Shown: positions 3,453-51,370 of the stretch, piece by piece
How positions within the stretch are numbered: the stretch's first letter is position 1
How the letters are laid out: the number at the start of each line of letters is the position of its first letter
Source of the DNA: Candidatus Yonathbacteria bacterium RIFCSPLOWO2_01_FULL_43_27
GTDB lineage: Bacteria; Patescibacteriota; Minisyncoccia; Phycocordibacterales; UBA1550
NCBI GenBank assembly: GCA_001823545.1
Contig: MHUV01000001.1
Coordinates: 37,849-100,128 of the forward strand
Length of the DNA: 62,280 bases
Reading direction: 5' to 3'
Notes under the pieces: generated by a model
Databases searched by the model: none
What the model saw: only the letters and a program-made list of their open reading frames with translations
What the model was told of the DNA's origin: nothing
Made by a program: the position numbers and the translations under genes

Positions 3453-3932
3453 ATGGAAGAATATCACATCACGTGGCACGCACCTGAACACGAGCATCGC
3501 GAGCATACCGCCGACTGGTACTGGGCAGTCAGTATTATTACCATATCACTGGCAATTGCGTTTATTCTTTTAGGAAACATCCTCCTCTCACTTATTCTTG
3601 TTATTGGTATCGGTTCTCTGCTTTTGCATTCAAAAAACCCTTCTCGCATGATCGAGCACGAAATATCACGCAAAGGTATTCGTTCAGGCGATAAACTTCG
3701 CCCATGGCACACGCTTGAAGCATTTTGGATTCTCGAAGAACAAACAATTCACAACATACACATTTCACCAAAACTTCTTTTGATCTCTGAGAAACCCTAT
3801 ATGCCACAAATAGTAATACCTCTTGATAATGCGCCCCTAGACGAAATTCATCAGATTCTTTCAAAAAAGCTCGAGGAAGTGCCTCAGGCTGAACCTTTTG
3901 CAAGTCGTCTTATGCGCACATTTGGATTTTAG
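3453..3932 (+). CDS. hypothetical two-TM membrane protein
   Basis: Internal ATG at 3453 (MEEYHITWHAPEHEHREHTADWYWAVSIITISLAIAF...). The upstream part of the listed ORF looks like noncoding leader. Confidence 0.55.
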   Translation: MEEYHITWHAPEHEHREHTADWYWAVSIITISLAIAFILLGNILLSLILVIGIGSLLLHSKNPSRMIEHEISRKGIRSGDKLRPWHTLEAFWILEEQTIHNIHISPKLLLISEKPYMPQIVIPLDNAPLDEIHQILSKKLEEVPQAEPFASRLMRTFGF

Positions 3933-4027
3933 GTTTGCAAACAACACAATTCCCCGTAGACGGTAGTTCTCTCATTTTTTGCTTTTTCCTGATTTTGTGG
4001 TAATGTGTAGAGGTTCAAAACATAGCC

Positions 4028-4099
4028 GTCCTCGTCGTTCAACGGATAGGACACGAGATTGCGGATCTCGTAATTGAGGTTCGATTCCTCACGAGGGCA
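4028..4099 (+). tRNA. tRNA-Arg (anticodon GCG), no encoded CCA
   Basis: Manual cloverleaf: acceptor GTCCTCG/CGAGGGC, D arm GTTC..GGAC, anticodon arm CGAGA-TTGCGGA-TCTCG, T arm TGAGG-TTCGATT-CCTCA, discriminator A. Confidence 0.85.
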
Positions 4100-4107
4100 C
4101 AAGAAAT

Positions 4108-4140
4108 AAAAGCACCCATTAGGGTGTTTTTATTTTATTT
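4108..4140. terminator. bidirectional hairpin terminator between tRNA-Arg and the convergent element
   Basis: gcaccc-atta-gggtgt stem flanked by an A-run upstream and a T-run downstream. Confidence 0.6.
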
Positions 4141-4263
4141 GTGCCCTCGTGAGGAATCGAACGTGAAGGGGGTCGGGGAAACATCTGTTTCTCCGTGGAG
4201 GAAGGCTTGGGAAAACCGTGGGTTTCCCAGGAGTGAGATAGCGAAGCGTCCTCACGAGGGCAC
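4141..4263 (-). repeat. tRNA-Arg minihelix-mimic element (copy A1), candidate structured RNA
   Basis: Perfect 14-bp terminal inverted repeat gtgccctcgtgagg (4141-4154) / cctcacgagggcac (4250-4263). The minus-strand 3' end gttcgattcctcacgagggcac equals the last 22 nt at the tRNA-Arg 3' end. The core is shared with 18858-19004 and 48473-48617. Confidence 0.6.
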
Positions 4264-4302
4264 CATAAAAAATACCCCCTTAATGTGGGGTATTTTTTAT
4301 GG
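4263..4302. repeat. 16-bp-stem palindromic hairpin
   Basis: ccataaaaaatacccc ... ggggtattttttatgg. Confidence 0.7.
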
Positions 4303-4348
4303 TGCCCTCGTAGCAAGGCGCCTGCGCGCCTTGCGTGAGGAATCGAAA
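4302..4348 (-). repeat. second inverted copy of the tRNA-Arg 3' end, interrupted by a 24-nt GC hairpin (copy A2)
   Basis: gtgccctcg [tagcaaggcgcctgcgcgccttgc] gtgaggaatcgaaa. Confidence 0.55.
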
Positions 4349-4645
4349 GACGGAGTATGTTTTGTTTAGCAAAACAAAACTACGAGTCGAGTGAGAAGCG
4401 AATACCTGGAGCTTCGCAAGATCGGAAATTATTTTTCTAGCAAGAAAAATAATTGAGAGGGGGTCGCGACTTTTGTAAGACGACGGTCGAGCAAAAAGTT
4501 GTGACCACGGAATTTTGTGAGTGACGACGAACAAAATATCTGTGACCGAGACGAACAATTATCTTCGACCGTCATTGCATTTATCTCAATAGTATAGTAG
4601 AAAACAAGAGGATAAGTTACTAAAAAAATCTATAGGAGGAATGGT

Positions 4646-5594
4646 ATGCCTAAAAGAAATTTCTGGAACCTCATCGAAAACAGGTGGGGTGACAACAAAT
4701 TCGTCTGTGTAGGACTCGACAGCAATATTAAAGAGATCCCCCGCTCCTTCTACGGCACGGTTGGAGTACCCGATGTTGTCTCCACAACCATTCAGATTCA
4801 ACAAAGTGATAGTAGAGGCAACAGCAGGTCTCGTATCTACCTACAAACTGAACTCTGCCGACTACGAAGCCTCGGGACCAGAAGGCTACGCCGCTATGAA
4901 AGGAACGATCGAGATGATTCATCAGGTCGAACCAGAAGCTGCTGTTATCATCGATGCCAAGCGCGGAGACACACACGATACCAATATCGACTACGCATGC
5001 GCACTCTTCGATGAGATGCAGGCAGACGCGATCACTATCAACCCGTATTTTGGAGAGAAAGCCTTGCGACCGTTTCTCGAGAGAAAAGAAAAAGGTATCT
5101 TTGTTCACTGTCTTTCTTCCGACGAGGGAGCAGAAGAGTTTCAATATCAACCGGTCTCGCTGAGAAGAAATGAACTCGACGAGATCGAGAAGCTTTTAGG
5201 ACACGCGACACACTATAACGGCGTTCCTTTGTACGAGTATGTTGCCTATAAGGTGGCACACTCGTGGAACAAAAACCATAACTGCGGTCTTGTGATCGGT
5301 GCAACACGTTCAGACGAACTCCGTGAAATCCGTAAAGTTATCGGCGATAATATGCCGATCTTGAGTCCCGGCATCGGCGCGCAGGGTGGCGACACCTACC
5401 AAGCATTCAGTGCCGGGAAAAACAAACGCGGAGAAGGACTGATCCTCAGCTCCTCGCGAAGCATTATCTTTGCATCGACCGACAACGTAGCTGAAGCAGC
5501 GCATCGCGAGACAAAAAAGATCGCAGAGGAAATTCATCGCGCGCGCCTGAAACACAGTTGTCGTCTTAGTGAAGGGCAGGCAAGTCCTCTGTAA
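4646..5594 (+). pseudogene. pyrF: orotidine 5'-phosphate decarboxylase (type-2 PyrF) with a one-base reading-frame break near 4735-4790
   Basis: The N-terminal VCVGLDSNIKEIP motif is in the frame of 4646. The rest of the type-2 PyrF pattern is in the frame of 4761: FRFNKVIVEATAGLVSTYKLNSADYEASG...IIDAKRGDTHDTN...DAITINPYFG. A C5 run lies at 4738-4742. Confidence 0.6.
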
Positions 5595-18762: not shown

Positions 18763-18798
18763 AACAAAAAAACACCGTGTAAACGGTGTTTTTTTGTT
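18763..18798 (+). terminator. intrinsic terminator after hup
   Basis: aaaaaaacaccgt-gtaa-acggtgttttttt. Confidence 0.85.
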
Positions 18799-18820
18799 TA
18801 CCCTGAGTTTATTGAAGAGT

Positions 18821-19004
18821 GCGGGATGGGAGATCGGTCATGAGTTACATTGTAAGAGGATGGGAGACGCTTCGCTATCGAACTCGTCGCTTCGCTCCTC
18901 TTTAGAAACCCACGGTTTCTAACGTTCGCTTCGCTCACTGTTTTCCTCCACGGGGAACCATAGGTTCCCCGACCCCCTCCTGAGTTCGATTCTCCCATCC
19001 CGTC
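18821..19004 (+). repeat. tRNA-Gly minihelix-mimic element (copy B1), candidate structured RNA
   Basis: 5' GCGGGAT-GGGAG equals the acceptor-5' plus T-stem-5' strands of tRNA-Gly(UCC). 3' GAGTTCGATTCTCCCATCCCG equals the tRNA's T loop, T-stem-3' and acceptor-3' strands. The core is nearly identical to 48473-48617 (reverse complement). Confidence 0.6.
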
Positions 19005-19049
19005 AAAAAATGCACTCTAAAATGTTGCACATTTTCTCGTATTTTTTGT

Positions 19050-19186
19050 GCGGGATGGGATCTCGGTCACGAGTTACTAAGTGTGCTCGGGTGGGTACAC
19101 CCTGCGCGCACTAAGTACTCTCGACCCCGCCTCAGCGACCCGCTTTGCGGGTGCCCGCTTCCGGCTTTCGATTCTCCCATCCCGTC
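19050..19186 (+). repeat. tRNA-Gly minihelix-mimic element (copy B2) with a different GC-rich insert
   Basis: 5' gcgggatggga ... 3' ttcgattctcccatcccgtc. The insert shares ggtcacgagttactaagtgtgctc with 48199-48224 (reverse complement). Confidence 0.55.
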
Positions 19187-19230
19187 AAAAAATGCACTCT
19201 AAAATGTTGCACATTTTCTCGTATTTTTTG

Positions 19231-19301
19231 TGCGGGATGGGAGAATCGAACTCCCCACCTCAGTTTGGAAAACTGATGTTTTACCAATAAACTAATCCCG
19301 C
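19231..19301 (-). tRNA. tRNA-Gly (anticodon UCC), no encoded CCA
   Basis: Minus-strand cloverleaf: GCGGGAT/ATCCCGC acceptor, anticodon arm TCAGT-TTTCCAA-ACTGA, T arm GGGAG-TTCGATT-CTCCC. Confidence 0.85.
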
Positions 19302-46312: not shown

Positions 46313-47815
46313 CTATTTAACCCCGTATTTTTCTCTAATTTCCGCCAACTCTTTCTCTTCTTCTGCTTCTTTTTTCTCCTTCCCTGCTTCGCCGAGTTTT
46401 TTTAACTCCTCGATGGGTAGTTCTGCAAGCTCAATTGCCCGTTTCACGAGAAACGCTTCATTGTTATTTTCAGGAAAATCAAACACTTCTTCGAGGAGCG
46501 CATGAAGAATAAACCCTATTTTAGGGCTTGGTTTTTCACGTGTAACATCCATAACCTTGGCGCCATCAATCTTGAGCATCCCTACAGACACCGGAGAACG
46601 CATTGCCTCCTCGATCATTGACTCATACTTTCGCAAACGATATGGAGTTTCTTTTGGTCGTCCCATGCCAATACGGTCACATCCGCGAAGTTTCATAAGA
46701 TCCCATACATTTTCTGGTCCTACGTTACGCACAATACGGCGCACCGCTGAAAGAGTTATTTTCTCAATATCTGAGAAGAAAAGATGGTACCGTACCAACG
46801 TTGATACCACATCAACCATCTTTTTTGAGTATTTCAAACGCTCAAGAGCTTTTTTTGTTACACGCCCCCCTACCACATCATGCCCATAGAATGTCCAATC
46901 ATTCTTTTCCTCTGACCAACGACGTGTTTCTGGCTTTGAAATATCATGCATAAGTGCAGAAAGGCGTATATGGAGTGGCCAATCACGATCTGCCGAATGT
47001 TGCACAGCACGCAAATTATGCTCCCATACCGTATAAATATGTGAACCATTTTGTTTAACATCAATCCCCCGCCTCAATTCAGGCATAATATACTCAAGGA
47101 GTCCAAGCTTTTCACACATAACAATACCTACCATTGGGTCTTTTGACATCACCATCTTGGAAAACTCGGTATTAATACGCTCCATAGCAATCTCTTTGAG
47201 ATTAGGCGCAGTTTTAATGATAGCCTCTTGAGTCTCGATGTTAATCGTGAAACCTAAATCCGTCGCAATACGTACCGCCCGTAAGATGCGGAGGGCATCC
47301 TCGTGAAAGCGATCATATGGGCTTCCTACCGTCCTCAAGACTTTGTCCTTTATGTCCTTTATTCCATCATATGGGTCAACGACGTGTCCTTTAGACAGTC
47401 CCATAGAATCATCATAAGCAATAGCGTTAATAGTAAAGTCCCTTCTTTTAAGATCGTCAGGTAGTTTCGCATGAAACGAGACACTGTCAGGACGACGTTT
47501 GTCACTATATACCCCCTCTGTACGATACGGCGTTATTTCCACAACCTTTACGGTTTCGTCGTCTGTTTCACTTACCACACCGACAGTTCCATATTCATTT
47601 TCATAAAATGTCTCTGTAAAGAGTTCCTGAATTTGTTCAGGTTTCGCATCTGTCGTTACATCCCAATCTTTTGGTTTTCGTCCTATTACCATATCCCTTA
47701 CGCACCCACCCACTAAATATGCTTCAAAACCAGCATCTCGTAATGTTTTGGTTATTCGTGAAACCTCTTCAGGAATTTGGTAGTTAAGTGTTATTTCCTT
47801 TGGTGTGTGAGGCAT
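46313..47815 (-). CDS. cca: CCA-adding tRNA nucleotidyltransferase / poly(A) polymerase family with HD domain
   Basis: AYLVGGCVRDMVIGRKPKDWD, RRDFTINA, HD region HDISKP. Start set at MPHTPKEI. Confidence 0.85.
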   Translation of the reverse strand: MPHTPKEITLNYQIPEEVSRITKTLRDAGFEAYLVGGCVRDMVIGRKPKDWDVTTDAKPEQIQELFTETFYENEYGTVGVVSETDDETVKVVEITPYRTEGVYSDKRRPDSVSFHAKLPDDLKRRDFTINAIAYDDSMGLSKGHVVDPYDGIKDIKDKVLRTVGSPYDRFHEDALRILRAVRIATDLGFTINIETQEAIIKTAPNLKEIAMERINTEFSKMVMSKDPMVGIVMCEKLGLLEYIMPELRRGIDVKQNGSHIYTVWEHNLRAVQHSADRDWPLHIRLSALMHDISKPETRRWSEEKNDWTFYGHDVVGGRVTKKALERLKYSKKMVDVVSTLVRYHLFFSDIEKITLSAVRRIVRNVGPENVWDLMKLRGCDRIGMGRPKETPYRLRKYESMIEEAMRSPVSVGMLKIDGAKVMDVTREKPSPKIGFILHALLEEVFDFPENNNEAFLVKRAIELAELPIEELKKLGEAGKEKKEAEEEKELAEIREKYGVK

Positions 47816-47951
47816 ACAAAATGATAGGTCAAATAGGTTATAGTGTTTTTGGCTCCTTTTCGCCAATGAAACACCATCAATCTTCGTTTCTCATAGTGTA
47901 GAGTATTTTTGGTTTTTTTACCAATATGCGCTATGGTTATATGAAGTACAT

Positions 47952-48023
47952 GCCCCTGTGGTGAAATGGATATCATCCCTGCCTTCGAAGCAGTTGTTCC
48001 AGGTTCGAATCCTGGCGGGGGCA
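47952..48023 (+). tRNA. tRNA-Arg (anticodon UCG), no encoded CCA
   Basis: Acceptor GCCCCTG/CGGGGGC, anticodon loop CTTCGAA, T arm CCAGG-TTCGAAT-CCTGG. Confidence 0.8.
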
Positions 48024-48069
48024 CAAAAATAAAGGAGTAAGATGCGGAGCATTTTACGAGTATTATTTT

Positions 48070-48092
48070 GTGTCCATGCCAGGATTCGAAAA
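48070..48092 (-). repeat. degenerate inverted copy of the tRNA-Arg(UCG) 3' end
   Basis: tgtccatgccaggattcgaaaac compared with the reverse complement of the tRNA end, tgcccccgccaggattcgaacct. Confidence 0.45.
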
Positions 48093-48358
48093 CGAACGCG
48101 GGGTACCCATCGAGCACGATGGGTCGCGCGAGTAGGGCCGAGCGGAGTGAGGAGCGACGGCGACAAACGAGCGCTTGGCCGAGCATCCTTCATCCCTGAG
48201 CACACTTAGTAACTCGTGACCACAAGAGAAACATGTAGTGCGGTAGACTTAGTAACTCGTGACCACAGAAAGCAATATGTGTAGCAAATATAATTAATAC
48301 CCTGTACACATCTTCCCAAAACATAAAAAATCTGTATAGTATAAGAGATAGAAAGTTT

Positions 48359-48429
48359 GCGGGTATGGTTTAGTGGTAGAACACGTCCTTGCCAAGGATG
48401 AGACGGGAGTTCGATTCTCCCTACCCGCA
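48359..48429 (+). tRNA. tRNA-Gly (anticodon GCC), no encoded CCA
   Basis: Acceptor GCGGGTA/TACCCGC, anticodon arm CGTCC-TTGCCAA-GGATG, T arm GGGAG-TTCGATT-CTCCC. Confidence 0.9.
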
Positions 48430-48472
48430 CAAAAAAATAGAATACGAAGTATTCTATGAATACTTTTTTGTA

Positions 48473-48617
48473 GCGGGTAGGGAGAATCGAACTCAGGAGG
48501 GGGTCGGGGAACCTATGGTTTCCCGTGAAGGAAAACAGTGAGCGAAGCGAACGTTAGAAACCGTGGGTTTCTAAAGAGGAGCGAAGCGACGAGTTCGATA
48601 GCGAAGCGTCTCCCATC
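48473..48617 (-). repeat. tRNA-Gly(GCC) 3'-end-mimic element (copy C2); same core as 18858-19004
   Basis: gcgggtagggagaatcgaactc is the reverse complement of the last 22 nt of the adjacent tRNA. By eye the remaining ~120 nt differ from copy B1 at only about two positions. Confidence 0.6.
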
Positions 48618-49014
48618 TTTTGTATTATATACCGCACCCTTCGACAAACTCAGGGCAGGCAATAAAAAAACTCCCTAGAGGGGAGTTTTTTGTTTAGAAA
48701 GCCTTAAAAGGACATTTTGGCAAAAGTGGTCAATATGTCTTATTAAGGAATGATCATAATAATTGATAACGAGAATGTTCGATTAAAGGACACCACTATA
48801 TTAGGCTATTATTTCACAACATACTGTCAACTACGCAAATCGCAAAAATATGGGTATAACTGTGCAAAACTGTGGATAACTCTGGGGATAGTGTTAATAA
48901 AGGACAAAAAACACTAAACTTGACAGCTGTTTATTGTTAGTAAAAATAAAGGACATTTGTATTAAACCTATATTTATCAATGGTTTTATACAAAAACGGT
49001 CCAAAATACTGTTA

Positions 49015-49055
49015 AACACCCTAAATATGTTACTAAGTAACATATTTAGGGTGTT
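49015..49055. promoter_or_regulatory. 41-bp palindrome (20-bp arms) upstream of yraN
   Basis: aacaccctaaatatgttact-a-agtaacatatttagggtgtt. Confidence 0.6.
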
Positions 49056-49126
49056 AAACATGAAACATGCCTTATTTTCTTGAAAAACGTCTAAAATTGG
49101 AGGATCTATATGTTAATATTTAACAA

Positions 49127-49534
49127 ATGACAAAAGATACTGAATCCCGAGGTATTGGTAGGCTCGGAGAGGATATCGCTGTAAAACACCTTGAAAACAA
49201 GGGTTTTACAACTATTGAGAGAAATTACCTTAAAAAATATGGGGAAATTGATATTATCGCCAAAAAGGGGGATATCCTTCATTTTATTGAAGTAAAGAGT
49301 GTTTCATGTGAAAATAACCCCTCAAATGTTCCGCGGGCAACAACCGATAATTATAGACCAGAAGACAATATTCACACCCAAAAAATCAAAAGGTTGTCAC
49401 GCACAATCCAAGCGTATTTATTAAGTAATTATCAAAATAAAGAACCTGCGTGGGTATTCGATGTAGTAACGATAAAAATTGACATGATCAACAAACGAGC
49501 GTATGTTAAGTTCCTTGAGGATCTTGTTTTGTAA
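49127..49534 (+). CDS. yraN: YraN-family (UPF0102) endonuclease
   Basis: GRLGEDIAVKHLENKGFTTIERNYLKKYGEIDIIAKKGDILHFIEVKS. Confidence 0.8.
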   Translation: MTKDTESRGIGRLGEDIAVKHLENKGFTTIERNYLKKYGEIDIIAKKGDILHFIEVKSVSCENNPSNVPRATTDNYRPEDNIHTQKIKRLSRTIQAYLLSNYQNKEPAWVFDVVTIKIDMINKRAYVKFLEDLVL

Positions 49535-49595
49535 AACTACAAATTTCTCAAAAAAGACATATTGTGTTAGTATTTCGTATGGTTTCCTAAGAAAA

Positions 49596-49666
49596 CGGGG
49601 TGTAGTATATCGGTAGTACGTCTGCTTTGGGAGCAGATAGGCCGAGTTCGATTCTCGGCACCCCGA
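49596..49666 (+). tRNA. tRNA-Pro (anticodon UGG), no encoded CCA
   Basis: Acceptor CGGGGTG/CACCCCG, anticodon arm TCTGC-TTTGGGA-GCAGA, T arm CCGAG-TTCGATT-CTCGG. Confidence 0.85.
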
Positions 49667-49763
49667 CTCGAGTGTGTTAAAAAAATAGAAACATAAAATA
49701 AAAGTGGTATTTACTCTTTGTAAATACCACTTTTATTTTATGTTGTGGTGCTATGTATTTATT

Positions 49764-49828
49764 ATTAGCGACGTAGAGCGAGAGGAATAAGAAAGTACTC
49801 TTTCTTATTCCCGAGCCGAGGAGCTAAT
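49764..49828 (+). repeat. R-element copy 3
   Basis: attagcgacgtagagcgag-aGGAATAAGAAAGtactCTTTCTTATTCC-cgagccgaggagctaat. Confidence 0.75.
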
Positions 49829-49903
49829 ATAGGTCAATACCCTGCGGTCTCTGCCGCAGGGGCCTATATTTTGCATTTGCGGTGTTTTCCTTTATGATAG
49901 TGC

Positions 49904-49923
49904 ATATCCACAAGTTATCCACA
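49904..49923 (+). promoter_or_regulatory. DnaA boxes upstream of dnaA
   Basis: atatccaca (49904-49912) and the perfect ttatccaca (49915-49923). Confidence 0.7.
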
Positions 49924-50011
49924 CGTTTAACACTGTTTTATCCGCTTGTTTACATTTTTTATTTGTAGGCTTGGGAATATAATAGGGATACCTTCTTTCT
50001 TTTAACTTCTT

Positions 50012-51370
50012 ATGACTGACAATACACAACTTTGGGAATACGCACTTCGTGACCTTGAAAACAGTCTTTCACGAGCAAACCTTAGTATGTGGTTTAAAAA
50101 CACCTCTATTATCAAACAAGAAGAGGGGATGGTGGTCATAGGAGTTCCAAATGAATTTGTAAAGGATTGGCTCCAAAACAAGTTCCACAAGATGATTTTG
50201 AAGTCTCTTCGTAATCTCGTGGAAAACACTCGTGGTGTAGAATATACGGTATGTAAAGTTGAGGAACCTAAAAAGGAGGAGAGGGCGGTAAAAGAAGAAT
50301 TTAAGGGTGGTTCAGAGCTTCCTATTGCCGACCTTTATATTAACCGAGAAGACGGGTTAAATCCTCGCTATGTGTTCGATAATTTTATTATTGGGCCCTT
50401 TAATGAGCTTGCGTACGCTGCATCACAGGCAATTTTGAAGAAAGTAGGTACCAATGTATATAATCCACTCTTTATTTATGGAAATACTGGTTTGGGGAAA
50501 ACACACCTCATTCAAGCAATAGGAAACCATATTAAGAAAAATTACCCCGGAAAGAAAGTGTTTTATATCACTTCTGAAAAATTTTCTGTTGATTACATCA
50601 ATTCTGTACAGCAGGGAATTAAGGCAATGAATGTTTTTAAAGAGAAATATCGTAAATATGATCTATTTGTTATGGACGATATTCAGTTTCTTTCTAATAA
50701 AGAAAAAACTCAAGAAGAGCTTTTTCATGTCTTTAATGAGCTTTACCACAACAACAAGCAGATTATTTTCTCATCTGATAGACACCCAAACTATATTCCT
50801 GCCCTTGAGGACCGTTTGAAGTCACGCTTTGGGTCAGGAATGATCGTAGATGTGCAAGAGCCGGATTATGAGTCACGCCTTGCTATTCTTCGTGCAAAGG
50901 CACAGGCAAGCCAATTTTGCCCCCCTGATGACATCATTAATTACCTTGCTTCTTCTGTACAAGGCAATGTTCGTGAACTTGAAGGGTTGCTTAATGGTGT
51001 TATTTGCCAGTCTCAGCTTAAAAATAGGCATTTAAGTCTTAATGAAATTAAACCATTTATTAAAAATACAGCAAAACCAAAGAAGTTGCTGTCTGTTAAG
51101 GAGGTGGTGAAAGTTATTTCAGATTATTATAATATTCAAGAAGGGGATATTTATGAAAAAACTAGAAAAAAAGAGGTTCTAAAACCACGACAAATTGCTA
51201 TGTTTATCTTACGTGAGGATTTTAATATCTCGTTTCCTACAATAGGCCAGAAGCTTGGCGGCCGTGATCATACAACCGTAATGCATTCTTGTGAAAAAGT
51301 AGAGAAAGATATGAAAGATGATCTTTCTTTAATGCAAGAGATTGATCAGCTCCGTGCAATGCTTTCATAA
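50012..51370 (+). CDS. dnaA: chromosomal replication initiator DnaA
   Basis: YNPLFIYGNTGLGKTHL, FVMDDIQFL, C-terminal PRQIAMFILRE...GGRDHTTVMHSCEKV. Confidence 0.95.
   Translation: MTDNTQLWEYALRDLENSLSRANLSMWFKNTSIIKQEEGMVVIGVPNEFVKDWLQNKFHKMILKSLRNLVENTRGVEYTVCKVEEPKKEERAVKEEFKGGSELPIADLYINREDGLNPRYVFDNFIIGPFNELAYAASQAILKKVGTNVYNPLFIYGNTGLGKTHLIQAIGNHIKKNYPGKKVFYITSEKFSVDYINSVQQGIKAMNVFKEKYRKYDLFVMDDIQFLSNKEKTQEELFHVFNELYHNNKQIIFSSDRHPNYIPALEDRLKSRFGSGMIVDVQEPDYESRLAILRAKAQASQFCPPDDIINYLASSVQGNVRELEGLLNGVICQSQLKNRHLSLNEIKPFIKNTAKPKKLLSVKEVVKVISDYYNIQEGDIYEKTRKKEVLKPRQIAMFILREDFNISFPTIGQKLGGRDHTTVMHSCEKVEKDMKDDLSLMQEIDQLRAMLS

Follow-up and report, generated by a model that had tools for sequence, protein, structure and literature searches.

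The window analysed here is a stretch of 62,280 nucleotides from Candidatus Yonathbacteria bacterium RIFCSPLOWO2_01_FULL_43_27, a member of the Patescibacteria or Candidate Phyla Radiation (CPR), and our subject is a short element of its minus strand, E1 (4141–4263), which lies convergent to the tRNA-Arg(GCG) gene on the plus strand and belongs to a family of non-coding palindromic elements beside tRNA and tmRNA genes. The first-pass annotation had read E1 as the acceptor/T-arm minihelix of that tRNA with a long insert, possibly one of a family of small RNAs that mimic the top half of a tRNA. The features of the locus and the other elements of the window are collected in Table 1.

Table 1. Features at the E1 locus and the other elements in the window
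Feature	Position	Strand	Description and basis
tRNA-Arg(GCG)	4028–4100	+	ARAGORN; Rfam tRNA 54.4 bits; 3' end (4079–4100) is the source of both E1 arms
Spacer S1	4101–4140	.	Palindromic A-run/hairpin/T-run, bidirectional-terminator-like; sequence reading; terminator-like site on the minus strand
Inner (3') arm A of E1	4141–4162	-	G53, T loop, T-stem 3' strand, acceptor 3' strand, discriminator, C
Pyrimidine tract 2 (CCCCCTTC)	4165–4172	-	Mirror-symmetric to the 3' strand of hairpin 2; covaries with hairpin 2, triplex-like
Hairpin 2 (GGAGAAAC-AGAT-GTTTCCCC)	4175–4194	-	Followed by a GA linker, 4173–4174; folding, covariation
Pyrimidine tract 1 (TTCCTCC, then AC)	4197–4203	-	Covaries with the pairs of hairpin 1 (A-T gives T, G-C gives C)
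Hairpin 1 (TGGGAAACC-CAC-GGTTTTCCCA)	4208–4229	-	Folding, covariation
Conserved box ATCTCAC	4233–4239 (within 4233–4248)	-	Altered T-loop complement
9-nt insert CGCTTCGCT before the ATCTCAC box	4240–4248	-	Plus strand is AGCGAAGCG, which includes GCGAAGC
Outer (5') arm A' of E1	4249–4263	-	Reverse complement of the tRNA 3' end; plus strand is a direct repeat of 4086–4100
Spacer S2	4264–4300	.	Second palindromic terminator-like spacer; sequence reading and folding
E2, type 2	4301 to about 4600	-	In tandem with E1, convergent to tRNA-Arg(GCG)
G1, type 1 (long)	18820–19004	+	Arms of tRNA-Gly(TCC), convergent to that gene
G2, type 2	19048–19186	+	Between G1 and tRNA-Gly(TCC) (19230–19301, minus strand)
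A2, type 2	about 48070 to 48270	-	Convergent to tRNA-Arg(TCG) (47952–48024, plus strand)
G3, type 1 (long)	48471–48637	-	Convergent to tRNA-Gly(GCC) (48359–48430, plus strand)

Architecture of E1

The 3' end of tRNA-Arg(GCG), the spacer S1 and arm A together make an 84-nt near-perfect palindrome (4079–4162), the DNA fold of which has an energy of -41.6 kcal/mol (z -17). Arm A is an exact inverted copy of 4079–4100, and the 22-nt match to the tRNA 3' end that had been noticed at first is thus found at 4079–4100 and 4141–4162. Its 21-mer TTCGATTCCTCACGAGGGCAC has only two sites in the window, 4080–4100 on the plus strand and 4141–4161 on the minus strand, which none of 100 shuffles matched; together with the preceding G it gives the 22-nt match between the E1 arm and tRNA-Arg(GCG). 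Read on the minus strand, E1 starts with GTGCCCTCGTGAGG and ends with GTTCGATTCCTCACGAGGGCAC, and these ends pair as a 15-bp helix in the minimum free energy (MFE) and centroid folds of both strands (z -5.7 and -4.5), i.e., the perfect closing helix of the earlier description does form in the predicted structure. The two insert hairpins have counterparts at 18902–18922 and 18952–18970, just as had been described. On the far side of E1, 4254–4310 is a 25-bp perfect hairpin that links the outer arm of E1 to the inner arm of E2 (z -11.8).

We found no sigma-70-like promoter within 3900–4800. E1 is not recognized as a tRNA, ARAGORN finding only the five true tRNAs of the window and the Rfam model RF00005 having no match on 4141–4263 even at E <= 10. 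A protein-coding reading of the elements was rejected: the overlying open reading frames (ORFs) are not conserved, and insertions and deletions between copies break them. Please note that spurious ORFs of 65–81 amino acids cross the elements (4119–4369 and 18798–18998) and that public assemblies annotate them as genes; the annotated products over the elements are 76 and 66 amino acids long, in L134 and L130 (L-numbers are the loci retrieved in our searches). In L134, a public metagenome-assembled genome (MAG) contig (GCA_001825055.1), position 4093 in the acceptor 3' strand of tRNA-Arg(GCG) (cctcaCCagggcac) is C instead of G. With this C, one acceptor pair would be lost; the C is found in neither arm of E1 and may be a true variant or an error of the assembly.

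Six elements beside four tRNA genes

Six elements, E1, E2, G1, G2, A2, and G3, stand beside four of the five tRNA genes of the window. E1, G1, and G3 have a common core, which we call type 1; that of E2, G2, and A2 (type 2) is marked by a CGACCCC box and by repeats of the GGTCAC type. A spacer of A-run, hairpin, and T-run lies between each element and its tRNA and also between adjoining elements. The core of G3 is about 97% identical to that of G1 (by eye), with an inner arm of Gly-GCC and an outer arm of Gly-TCC sequence, and G1 carries a 24-nt GGTCATGAGTTAC insert with GGATGGGAGA repeats on both sides. The 3' arm of E2 reads TTTCGATTCCTCA-[25-nt insert with hairpin]-CGAGGGCACCA, the insert being placed between the T-stem and acceptor parts; the core of E2 has three GGTCAC-type repeats plus CGCGACCCCC, and E2 is without a clear outer arm. 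In the region of the ATCTCAC box, subfamilies can be told apart as GGA-CGCTTCGCT-ATCTCAC, GGAATC-TCAC, and GGAATCGAAC.

The type-2 cores (4455–4600 and 48190–48270, both plus strand, and also 18836–18850) have two to three direct repeats of GGTCAC(G/A)... about 30–50 nt apart, and their spacers have an ATGC(G/T)..GCAT motif; judged by their letters, these boxes and this motif look like protein-binding sites. The type-2 boxes recur in unrelated CPR loci (L026, L030, L124). A2, G3, and three of the tRNAs directly adjoin the likely replication origin (48650–51370), where dnaA (50012–51370, plus strand) is followed by dnaN, TTATCCACA-like boxes lie at about 48870–48890 and 49910–49925, and the cumulative GC skew turns near 48 kb. 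The gene of the CCA-adding enzyme (46313–47866, minus strand) adjoins tRNA-Arg(TCG). Most of the CPR tRNA genes that we examined (those of the window and 60 in L007–L124) encode the C after the discriminator and not the CCA; among the 60, the triplet after the discriminator is CAA in 25, CAT in 10, and CCA in 7.

A family across the CPR

We searched species-representative genomes, the metagenomes of the Joint Genome Institute (JGI), and viral contigs with the motif CCCCGACCCCC-N3-9-GTTCGAWTC. There are at least 118 motif loci in the genome collection and at least 116 in the JGI metagenomes, and a hidden Markov model of the core, which is about 75 nt long, finds at least 137 copies in the genome set and at least 118 in the metagenome set; the viral contigs gave one match, a chance one on a reversed tRNA. 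Among the matches listed, all but a handful of the genome loci belong to Patescibacteria/CPR, the lineages being Saccharibacteria, many Parcubacteria/Paceibacteria, Moranii-, Komeili-, and Berkelbacteria, and Minisyncoccia. The homologous elements that the first-pass annotation had suggested should be sought beside tRNA genes of related genomes thus exist, and they form a real family. Its members are short (100–230 bp), non-coding, and multi-copy (more than 230 copies), and their conservation reaches beyond the positions of the search pattern, linkers included, across the CPR.

Both at the gathering threshold and at E <= 10, Rfam gives only tRNAs and chance miRNA-like matches on palindromes, and full-text literature searches found no described CPR tRNA-flanking RNA or repeat. 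The family of non-coding palindromic elements beside CPR tRNA and tmRNA genes is apparently undescribed, in agreement with the opinion given on the sequence at first.

A few genuine copies occur in MAGs labelled Candidatus Angelobacter or Bdellovibrionales (L029, L031, L037), which probably reflects contaminating CPR contigs or mislabelled bins and not true occurrence outside the CPR. In one subfamily (L010, L027, L031, L037, L097, L098, L119), hairpin 1 is swapped for another hairpin, CTATAGGGCTTCCGCCCTCTAG, with hairpin 2 and the T-loop end kept. A second small repeat of about 140 nt, with terminal inverted repeats CATGAAAGTAGGGCTGGG / CCCAGCCCTACTTTCATG, lies between core and outer arm in several elements of one Yonathbacteria genome (L076:2132–2624 and 3720–4213; L015).

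Position, spacer, and arms

A convergent tRNA gene is found not more than 150 nt beyond the T-loop end in 99 of 137 genome copies and 87 of 118 metagenome copies (about 75%). At least 37 anticodons are represented among the neighbouring tRNAs, and tmRNA is also used, copies that adjoin smpB being convergent to the tmRNA gene. From G53 of the tRNA to G53 of the element, the junction is typically a palindrome of about 84 nt with a median spacer of 42 nt, and A- and T-runs are present in it in 69 of 95 cases. In tandem units, the neighbours have a common arm-spacer-arm junction.

The outer (5') arm is the reverse complement of the 3' end of the neighbouring tRNA, begins at the gene terminus, and extends for 14–22 nt; a perfect repeat from the tRNA terminus with at least 10 matched nt was found in 82 of 95 copies. 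Read along the tRNA strand, it is therefore a direct repeat at the end of the element away from the gene, similar to a target duplication or an att site. In about nine of 60 copies, the far-end repeat extends at least 6 nt past the tRNA end into the flank, which points to a duplication at the DNA level. Encoded CCA is not enriched: it follows the far-end repeat in 11 of 60 copies, compared with 7 of 60 tRNA genes, and a hand estimate places this within chance. We accordingly dropped the idea that the repeat carries the CCA of the mature tRNA, which would concern E1 and a few other copies.

The inner arm is less complete. It matches the tRNA from G53 for 9–22 nt only (mode 10–14), usually through the T loop and T stem alone. 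It is nevertheless tRNA-specific, with an identity to the adjacent tRNA of 7.3/12, compared with 4.4/12 in shuffled pairings, and together with the outer arm this bears out the earlier statement that the ends derive from the adjacent tRNA. The arms A' and A are, in other words, inverted repeats, but target-derived ones. A comparison of inner arms with foreign tRNA ends, i.e., with possible leftovers of an earlier site, gave a weak signal (4.5 versus 5.6 mismatches) and two suggestive cases.

Since the inner arm matches the tRNA only briefly, the closing helix is weak in most copies: the median energy of the closing duplex across the family is 37% of that of a perfect helix, and at least 80% is reached in only about six of 63 copies (about 10%). 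Moreover, the outer arm in most copies continues as ATCTCAC or ATCGAAC, which is able to pair with T-loop bases, and a closed 7-nt T loop is consequently not predicted. E1, L076, and L080 are rare fully symmetric copies, and the perfect closing helix of E1 is atypical of the family. The acceptor/T-arm minihelix, on which the first reading of E1 was built, is hence not a family feature.

Covariation in the core

In 37 diverse members, the positions of hairpins 1 and 2 are paired in 90.9% of cases, compared with 80.2% in shuffles, and double-sided changes number 71 where 25 +/- 3.5 are expected, a value that none of 500 shuffles reached; slid controls are far lower. The compensatory changes that had been noticed between E1 and the Gly-associated copies are therefore better than chance.

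Mutual information couples each hairpin to its following pyrimidine tract in parallel direction, with A-T giving T and G-C giving C. To give examples, the counts for one triplet are 71 and 19, and for another 25, 22, and 16 (the last being C-G with A); the triplet covariation is significant at p<0.0005 by column shuffles, phylogeny not being corrected for. As far as alignment columns can tell, this is the signature of an intramolecular triplex, which would be of the pyrimidine motif on the element strand or of the purine motif on the tRNA-sense strand.

Which of the two strands folds was approached in two ways. The tRNA-sense strand, which also bears the AGCGAAGCG inserts, has the more stable MFE over the whole core in 80 of 82 cores, a comparison confounded by G-richness. 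Wobble pairs at unbiased positions of hairpin 1 show no strand preference (19 G.U versus 22 A.C). An excess of A.C in hairpin 2 was discarded as a strand signal, being an artefact of the CCCC fixed in the search pattern.

Differences between strains and species

We compared strains through contigs that encode an identical HU protein. L130 is without the whole 229-bp G2 unit, and L132 has a type-2 element at the position of G1 in the window. In L127, L129, and L133, the 5' part of G1 is fused to the 3' part of G3, which is followed by tRNA-Gly(GCC); L127 and L133 run on through A2, and L127 then continues into the reverse complement of tRNA-Arg(TCG) and the CCA-enzyme gene. Judged from the sequence of the joins, this fits an inversion of about 30 kb with breakpoints inside the near-identical inverted cores of G1 and G3, and such an inversion would explain why G3, at tRNA-Gly(GCC), has an outer arm with tRNA-Gly(TCC) sequence. 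Core exchange is also seen: the A2-like core of L129 and a G2-like core of L128 are joined to arms of other tRNAs, which by eye we read as Trp and Gly-CCC, respectively.

In comparisons across species, differing element types occur at the orthologous tRNA-Gly(GCC), and tRNA-Arg(TCG) of L030 has no element. Other small repeats are inserted into elements. In L122:986–4244, a 2.86-kb segment of three genes lies between 201-bp direct repeats that are 99% identical, each of which consists of a tRNA-Gln 3' end, a spacer, and an element. Two of the genes encode a DUF1697 protein and a nucleoside 2-deoxyribosyltransferase, and the product of the remaining one, 468 aa long, matches nothing in Pfam, PHROG, or PDB; the segment may be a cargo-carrying version or a duplication.

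Interpretation

We hold with moderate confidence that E1 is an intact copy of a CPR-wide class of non-autonomous insertion elements, similar to miniature inverted-repeat transposable elements (MITEs) or to miniature integrative elements, that are aimed at the 3' ends of tRNA and tmRNA genes. The architecture is constant at 37 or more anticodons and at tmRNA, the units form tandem arrays, whole units are gained or lost between strains, cores are exchanged between loci, and a large rearrangement has taken place through the copies. On such a reading, E1 looks like a minihelix because both of its arms are undecayed.

Along the tRNA strand, the tRNA 3' end is followed by the element's own bidirectional-terminator spacer (about 42 nt) and then by T loop and T stem in inverted copy; next comes the conserved core, with two hairpins that each precede a mirror-symmetric tract able to form a triplex, and last the direct repeat. 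The far direct repeat, a copy of the last 15–22 nt of the tRNA gene, would be a target duplication or att core left by insertion. A duplication of this kind would need staggered cuts about 15–22 bp apart, as in insertion of the Cas1/casposase type or in target-primed insertion; alternatively, a folded single strand may be recombined, as with CTX phage attP or integron attC. An enzyme acting in trans would recognize the folded core, and homologous recombination would spread and reshuffle the copies. A duplicating insertion or a folded single-strand intermediate fits the arms, by analogy, better than conservative site-specific recombination does.

A further-reaching proposal, which we offer only tentatively and would call doubtful as a whole, is that these units are a class of miniature elements found throughout the CPR that are active as a folded single strand and insert beside tRNA or tmRNA genes of any kind through duplication of the last 15–22 bp of the gene. 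Going by sequence, the folded strand would be either DNA of the tRNA-sense strand, with GCGAAGC mini-hairpins and two triplex modules of the purine motif, or RNA of the element strand, with U.A-U and C+.G-C triples. The enzyme would probably be host-encoded, and spread between lineages may take place through the natural competence on which CPR bacteria depend.

Several observations weigh against insertion elements. The E1 locus is invariant in the four strain contigs compared, and the presence or absence of G2 could equally be explained as a deletion between 75-bp repeats. We clustered 1304 ORFs of the neighbourhoods all-against-all and ran Pfam on the top clusters: the recurrent families are housekeeping only (EF-G, CCA-adding enzyme, L19, S2, UPF0102, DnaX), and no transposase, integrase, or reverse transcriptase is recurrently linked. 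The ORFs adjoining "orphan" copies include no recombinase or reverse transcriptase, and no autonomous relative or insertion sequence (IS) was found near 255 copies (in the neighbourhoods searched, not in whole genomes). Simple conservative recombination cannot by itself produce arms that fit each new tRNA, and the insertion chemistry is an inference. A core that is conserved in sequence and structure and covaries across very deep CPR lineages is seldom seen in selfish repeats; it suggests that a function is under selection, or that horizontal transfer is frequent. The shared bidirectional terminator is also what one would expect of a convergently transcribed small gene.

Given the deep conservation and the triplex-like covariation, a cis-acting role and a functional RNA are still rivals. 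In the cis-acting case, the elements would be 3'-flank modules of the tRNA genes, i.e., reinforced bidirectional terminators or insulators, or a quality-control device in which a read-through transcript pairs the inverted arm with the tRNA 3' half into a hairpin of about 40 bp and is degraded; alternatively, triplex-forming DNA would block polymerases. The placement immediately 3' of tRNA and tmRNA genes, the palindromic junction with its A- and T-runs and the very low z-score at E1, and the more stable folding of the tRNA-sense strand all speak for this. However, the far-side direct repeat, the tandem units, and the conserved core beyond the palindrome are left unexplained, some orthologous tRNAs have no element, the difference in MFE can be an effect of G-richness, and hairpin 1 is without a strand signal. 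We regard a cis-acting module as unlikely.

It is likewise improbable, in our judgement, that the elements are genes of a transcribed small RNA. The element-strand RNA would end at the shared bidirectional terminator and act on tRNA 3' ends or on their enzymes, candidate targets being RNase P, RNase Z, and the CCA-adding enzyme; its 5' 15–22 nt would be antisense to the 3' end of the neighbouring tRNA or fold back to mimic an acceptor/T arm, and the hairpin and pyrimidine-tract modules would be stabilizing U.A-U / C+.G-C triple helices. The strong covariation of both hairpins is in favour of such an RNA, as are the triplet covariation, which obeys the pyrimidine-motif rule on the element strand, the linker sequence highly conserved across the CPR, the convergence with the tRNA across a bidirectional terminator, like that of convergent genes, and the outer-arm complementarity to the tRNA, which is the best-kept feature of the arms. 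But the closing minihelix is not conserved, no promoter was found around E1 and the 5' arm directly adjoins the T-run of the terminator upstream of it, and G.U pairs are not in excess on the element strand in hairpin 1. Four to five consecutive C+.G-C triples are unfavourable at neutral pH. Elements are absent or swapped at orthologous tRNAs and vary among strains, and an RNA acting in trans needs no adjacency to the tRNA gene. Of the small-RNA family that mimics the tRNA top half, as it was first proposed, the family and its covarying hairpins stand; the mimicry itself finds no counterpart in a conserved minihelix, a promoter, or an encoded CCA, and whole units change at the level of strains.

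Inert debris is very unlikely. The elements would be decayed tRNA pseudogenes, or attL/attR scars of integrase-bearing islands or prophages that once resided in these tRNA genes; integrases that target tRNA genes classically leave direct repeats of the tRNA 3' end as scars, and the loci are rearrangement hot spots. Against this, more than 230 sites in many CPR lineages share a core (about 75 nt) whose hairpins covary, the neighbouring tRNAs representing at least 37 anticodons, and neither ARAGORN nor Rfam sees a tRNA in the element. As the specific core recurs everywhere, and scars of unrelated islands would not share one, this explanation is largely refuted.

A relation to retroelements, in which the outer arm would be a primer-binding site for the neighbouring tRNA or the element a cDNA made from or primed by a tRNA, can be dismissed as highly improbable: the tRNA 3' end has its exact complement in the outer arm, beginning at the terminus, and the plus strand of E1 reads ...CGAGGGCACCA while the tRNA gene is without CCA, but CCA after the far-end repeat does not exceed chance, repeats often run into the genomic flank, no reverse transcriptase was seen near the elements, and the lack of the TGG signature argues against it. 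The alternative named in the first-pass annotation thus holds as far as complementarity to the tRNA 3' end is concerned, this being a conserved feature of the arms, and fails as a primer-binding site.

CPR genomes are tiny and have little non-coding DNA, yet about 1.2 kb of the window consists of the six elements, and each major lineage that was sampled has the family. If mobile, the elements would represent a new way to target tRNA 3' ends, with ends that are re-templated for each target, and would drive genome rearrangement in the CPR; the strain comparison fits a 30-kb inversion beside oriC. If the folded-strand proposal is true, the targeting chemistry would be new and would work with a double-triplex recognition core. 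If the elements are transcribed, they would be a family of tRNA-specific antisense or mimic RNAs with a rare double-triplex fold. Since the elements cause spurious ORF calls and likely break metagenome assemblies at tRNA loci, a covariance model would improve CPR annotation.

Comparison with known systems

Integrative elements with tyrosine integrases that target tRNA and tmRNA genes (genomic islands and prophages) are similar in several respects: both occupy the 3' part of the gene and leave the tRNA intact, both form tandem arrays at one tRNA, and in both the far boundary carries a direct repeat that covers the gene from the T-loop region to its terminus. In contrast, the CPR units are 100–230 bp long, have no integrase, use dozens of tRNAs with fitted arms, and have in addition part of the T arm in inverted copy and a structured core that is conserved.

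MITEs and repetitive extragenic palindromic (REP) sequences with their bacterial interspersed mosaic elements (BIMEs), e.g., Correia elements, Rickettsia palindromic elements, and REP with REP-associated tyrosine transposases (RAYT), are also short, non-coding, multi-copy, and palindromic; they too lie in intergenic 3' regions, are often associated with terminators, and serve as substrates of rearrangement. The CPR elements differ in that their terminal repeats are copies of the 3' end of the neighbouring tRNA instead of a fixed sequence, in their strict site and orientation in the tRNA/tmRNA 3' flank, and in their distribution over a superphylum instead of a single species; no parent IS or RAYT was found.

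Casposons and CRISPR adaptation, which rely on the Cas1 family, insert beside a "leader" with a target duplication of 14–37 bp and produce repeat-insert-repeat arrays, and some casposons use tRNA 3' ends. By analogy only, the tRNA body could be regarded as the "leader", but no cas1 or casposase gene and no casposon terminal inverted repeats were seen.

Among tRNA-like RNAs (minihelices, the tmRNA domain, viral tRNA-like structures, mascRNA), the likeness is that E1 can be drawn with a helix of acceptor and T stem of 14–15 bp and that GTTCGAWTC is conserved; as in MALAT1/mascRNA, triplex-like modules adjoin a tRNA-like 3' part. However, the family has not conserved the minihelix, D and anticodon arms and a CCA are absent, and the behaviour of the elements is that of DNA-level units.

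Folded single-strand recombination sites are known from CTX phage attP(+), which is used by XerCD (PMC3442271), and from integron attC (PMC4792948). The two inverted target-like copies of the CPR elements, about 90 nt apart, could similarly fold into a duplex that mimics the chromosomal target. As in attC, the structure of the stems is conserved above their sequence and the units form arrays, and by reading, the T-loop boxes GTTCGAT / ATCGAAC are each one mismatch from the R'/R'' consensus GTTRRRY / RYYYAAC. The differences are that there is no dif-like site, that no intI was seen in the retrieved loci, and that conservative recombination would not itself duplicate the target.

Finally, the TTTCCCC-GA-CCCCCTT-type sequences read as homopyrimidine mirror repeats, in which A-T gives T and G-C gives C, and in this they resemble H-DNA. 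Unlike H-DNA, each mirror repeat of the CPR elements has an intrastrand complementary purine arm, so as to make a potential hairpin plus third strand, and is set within a repeat that flanks a tRNA gene.

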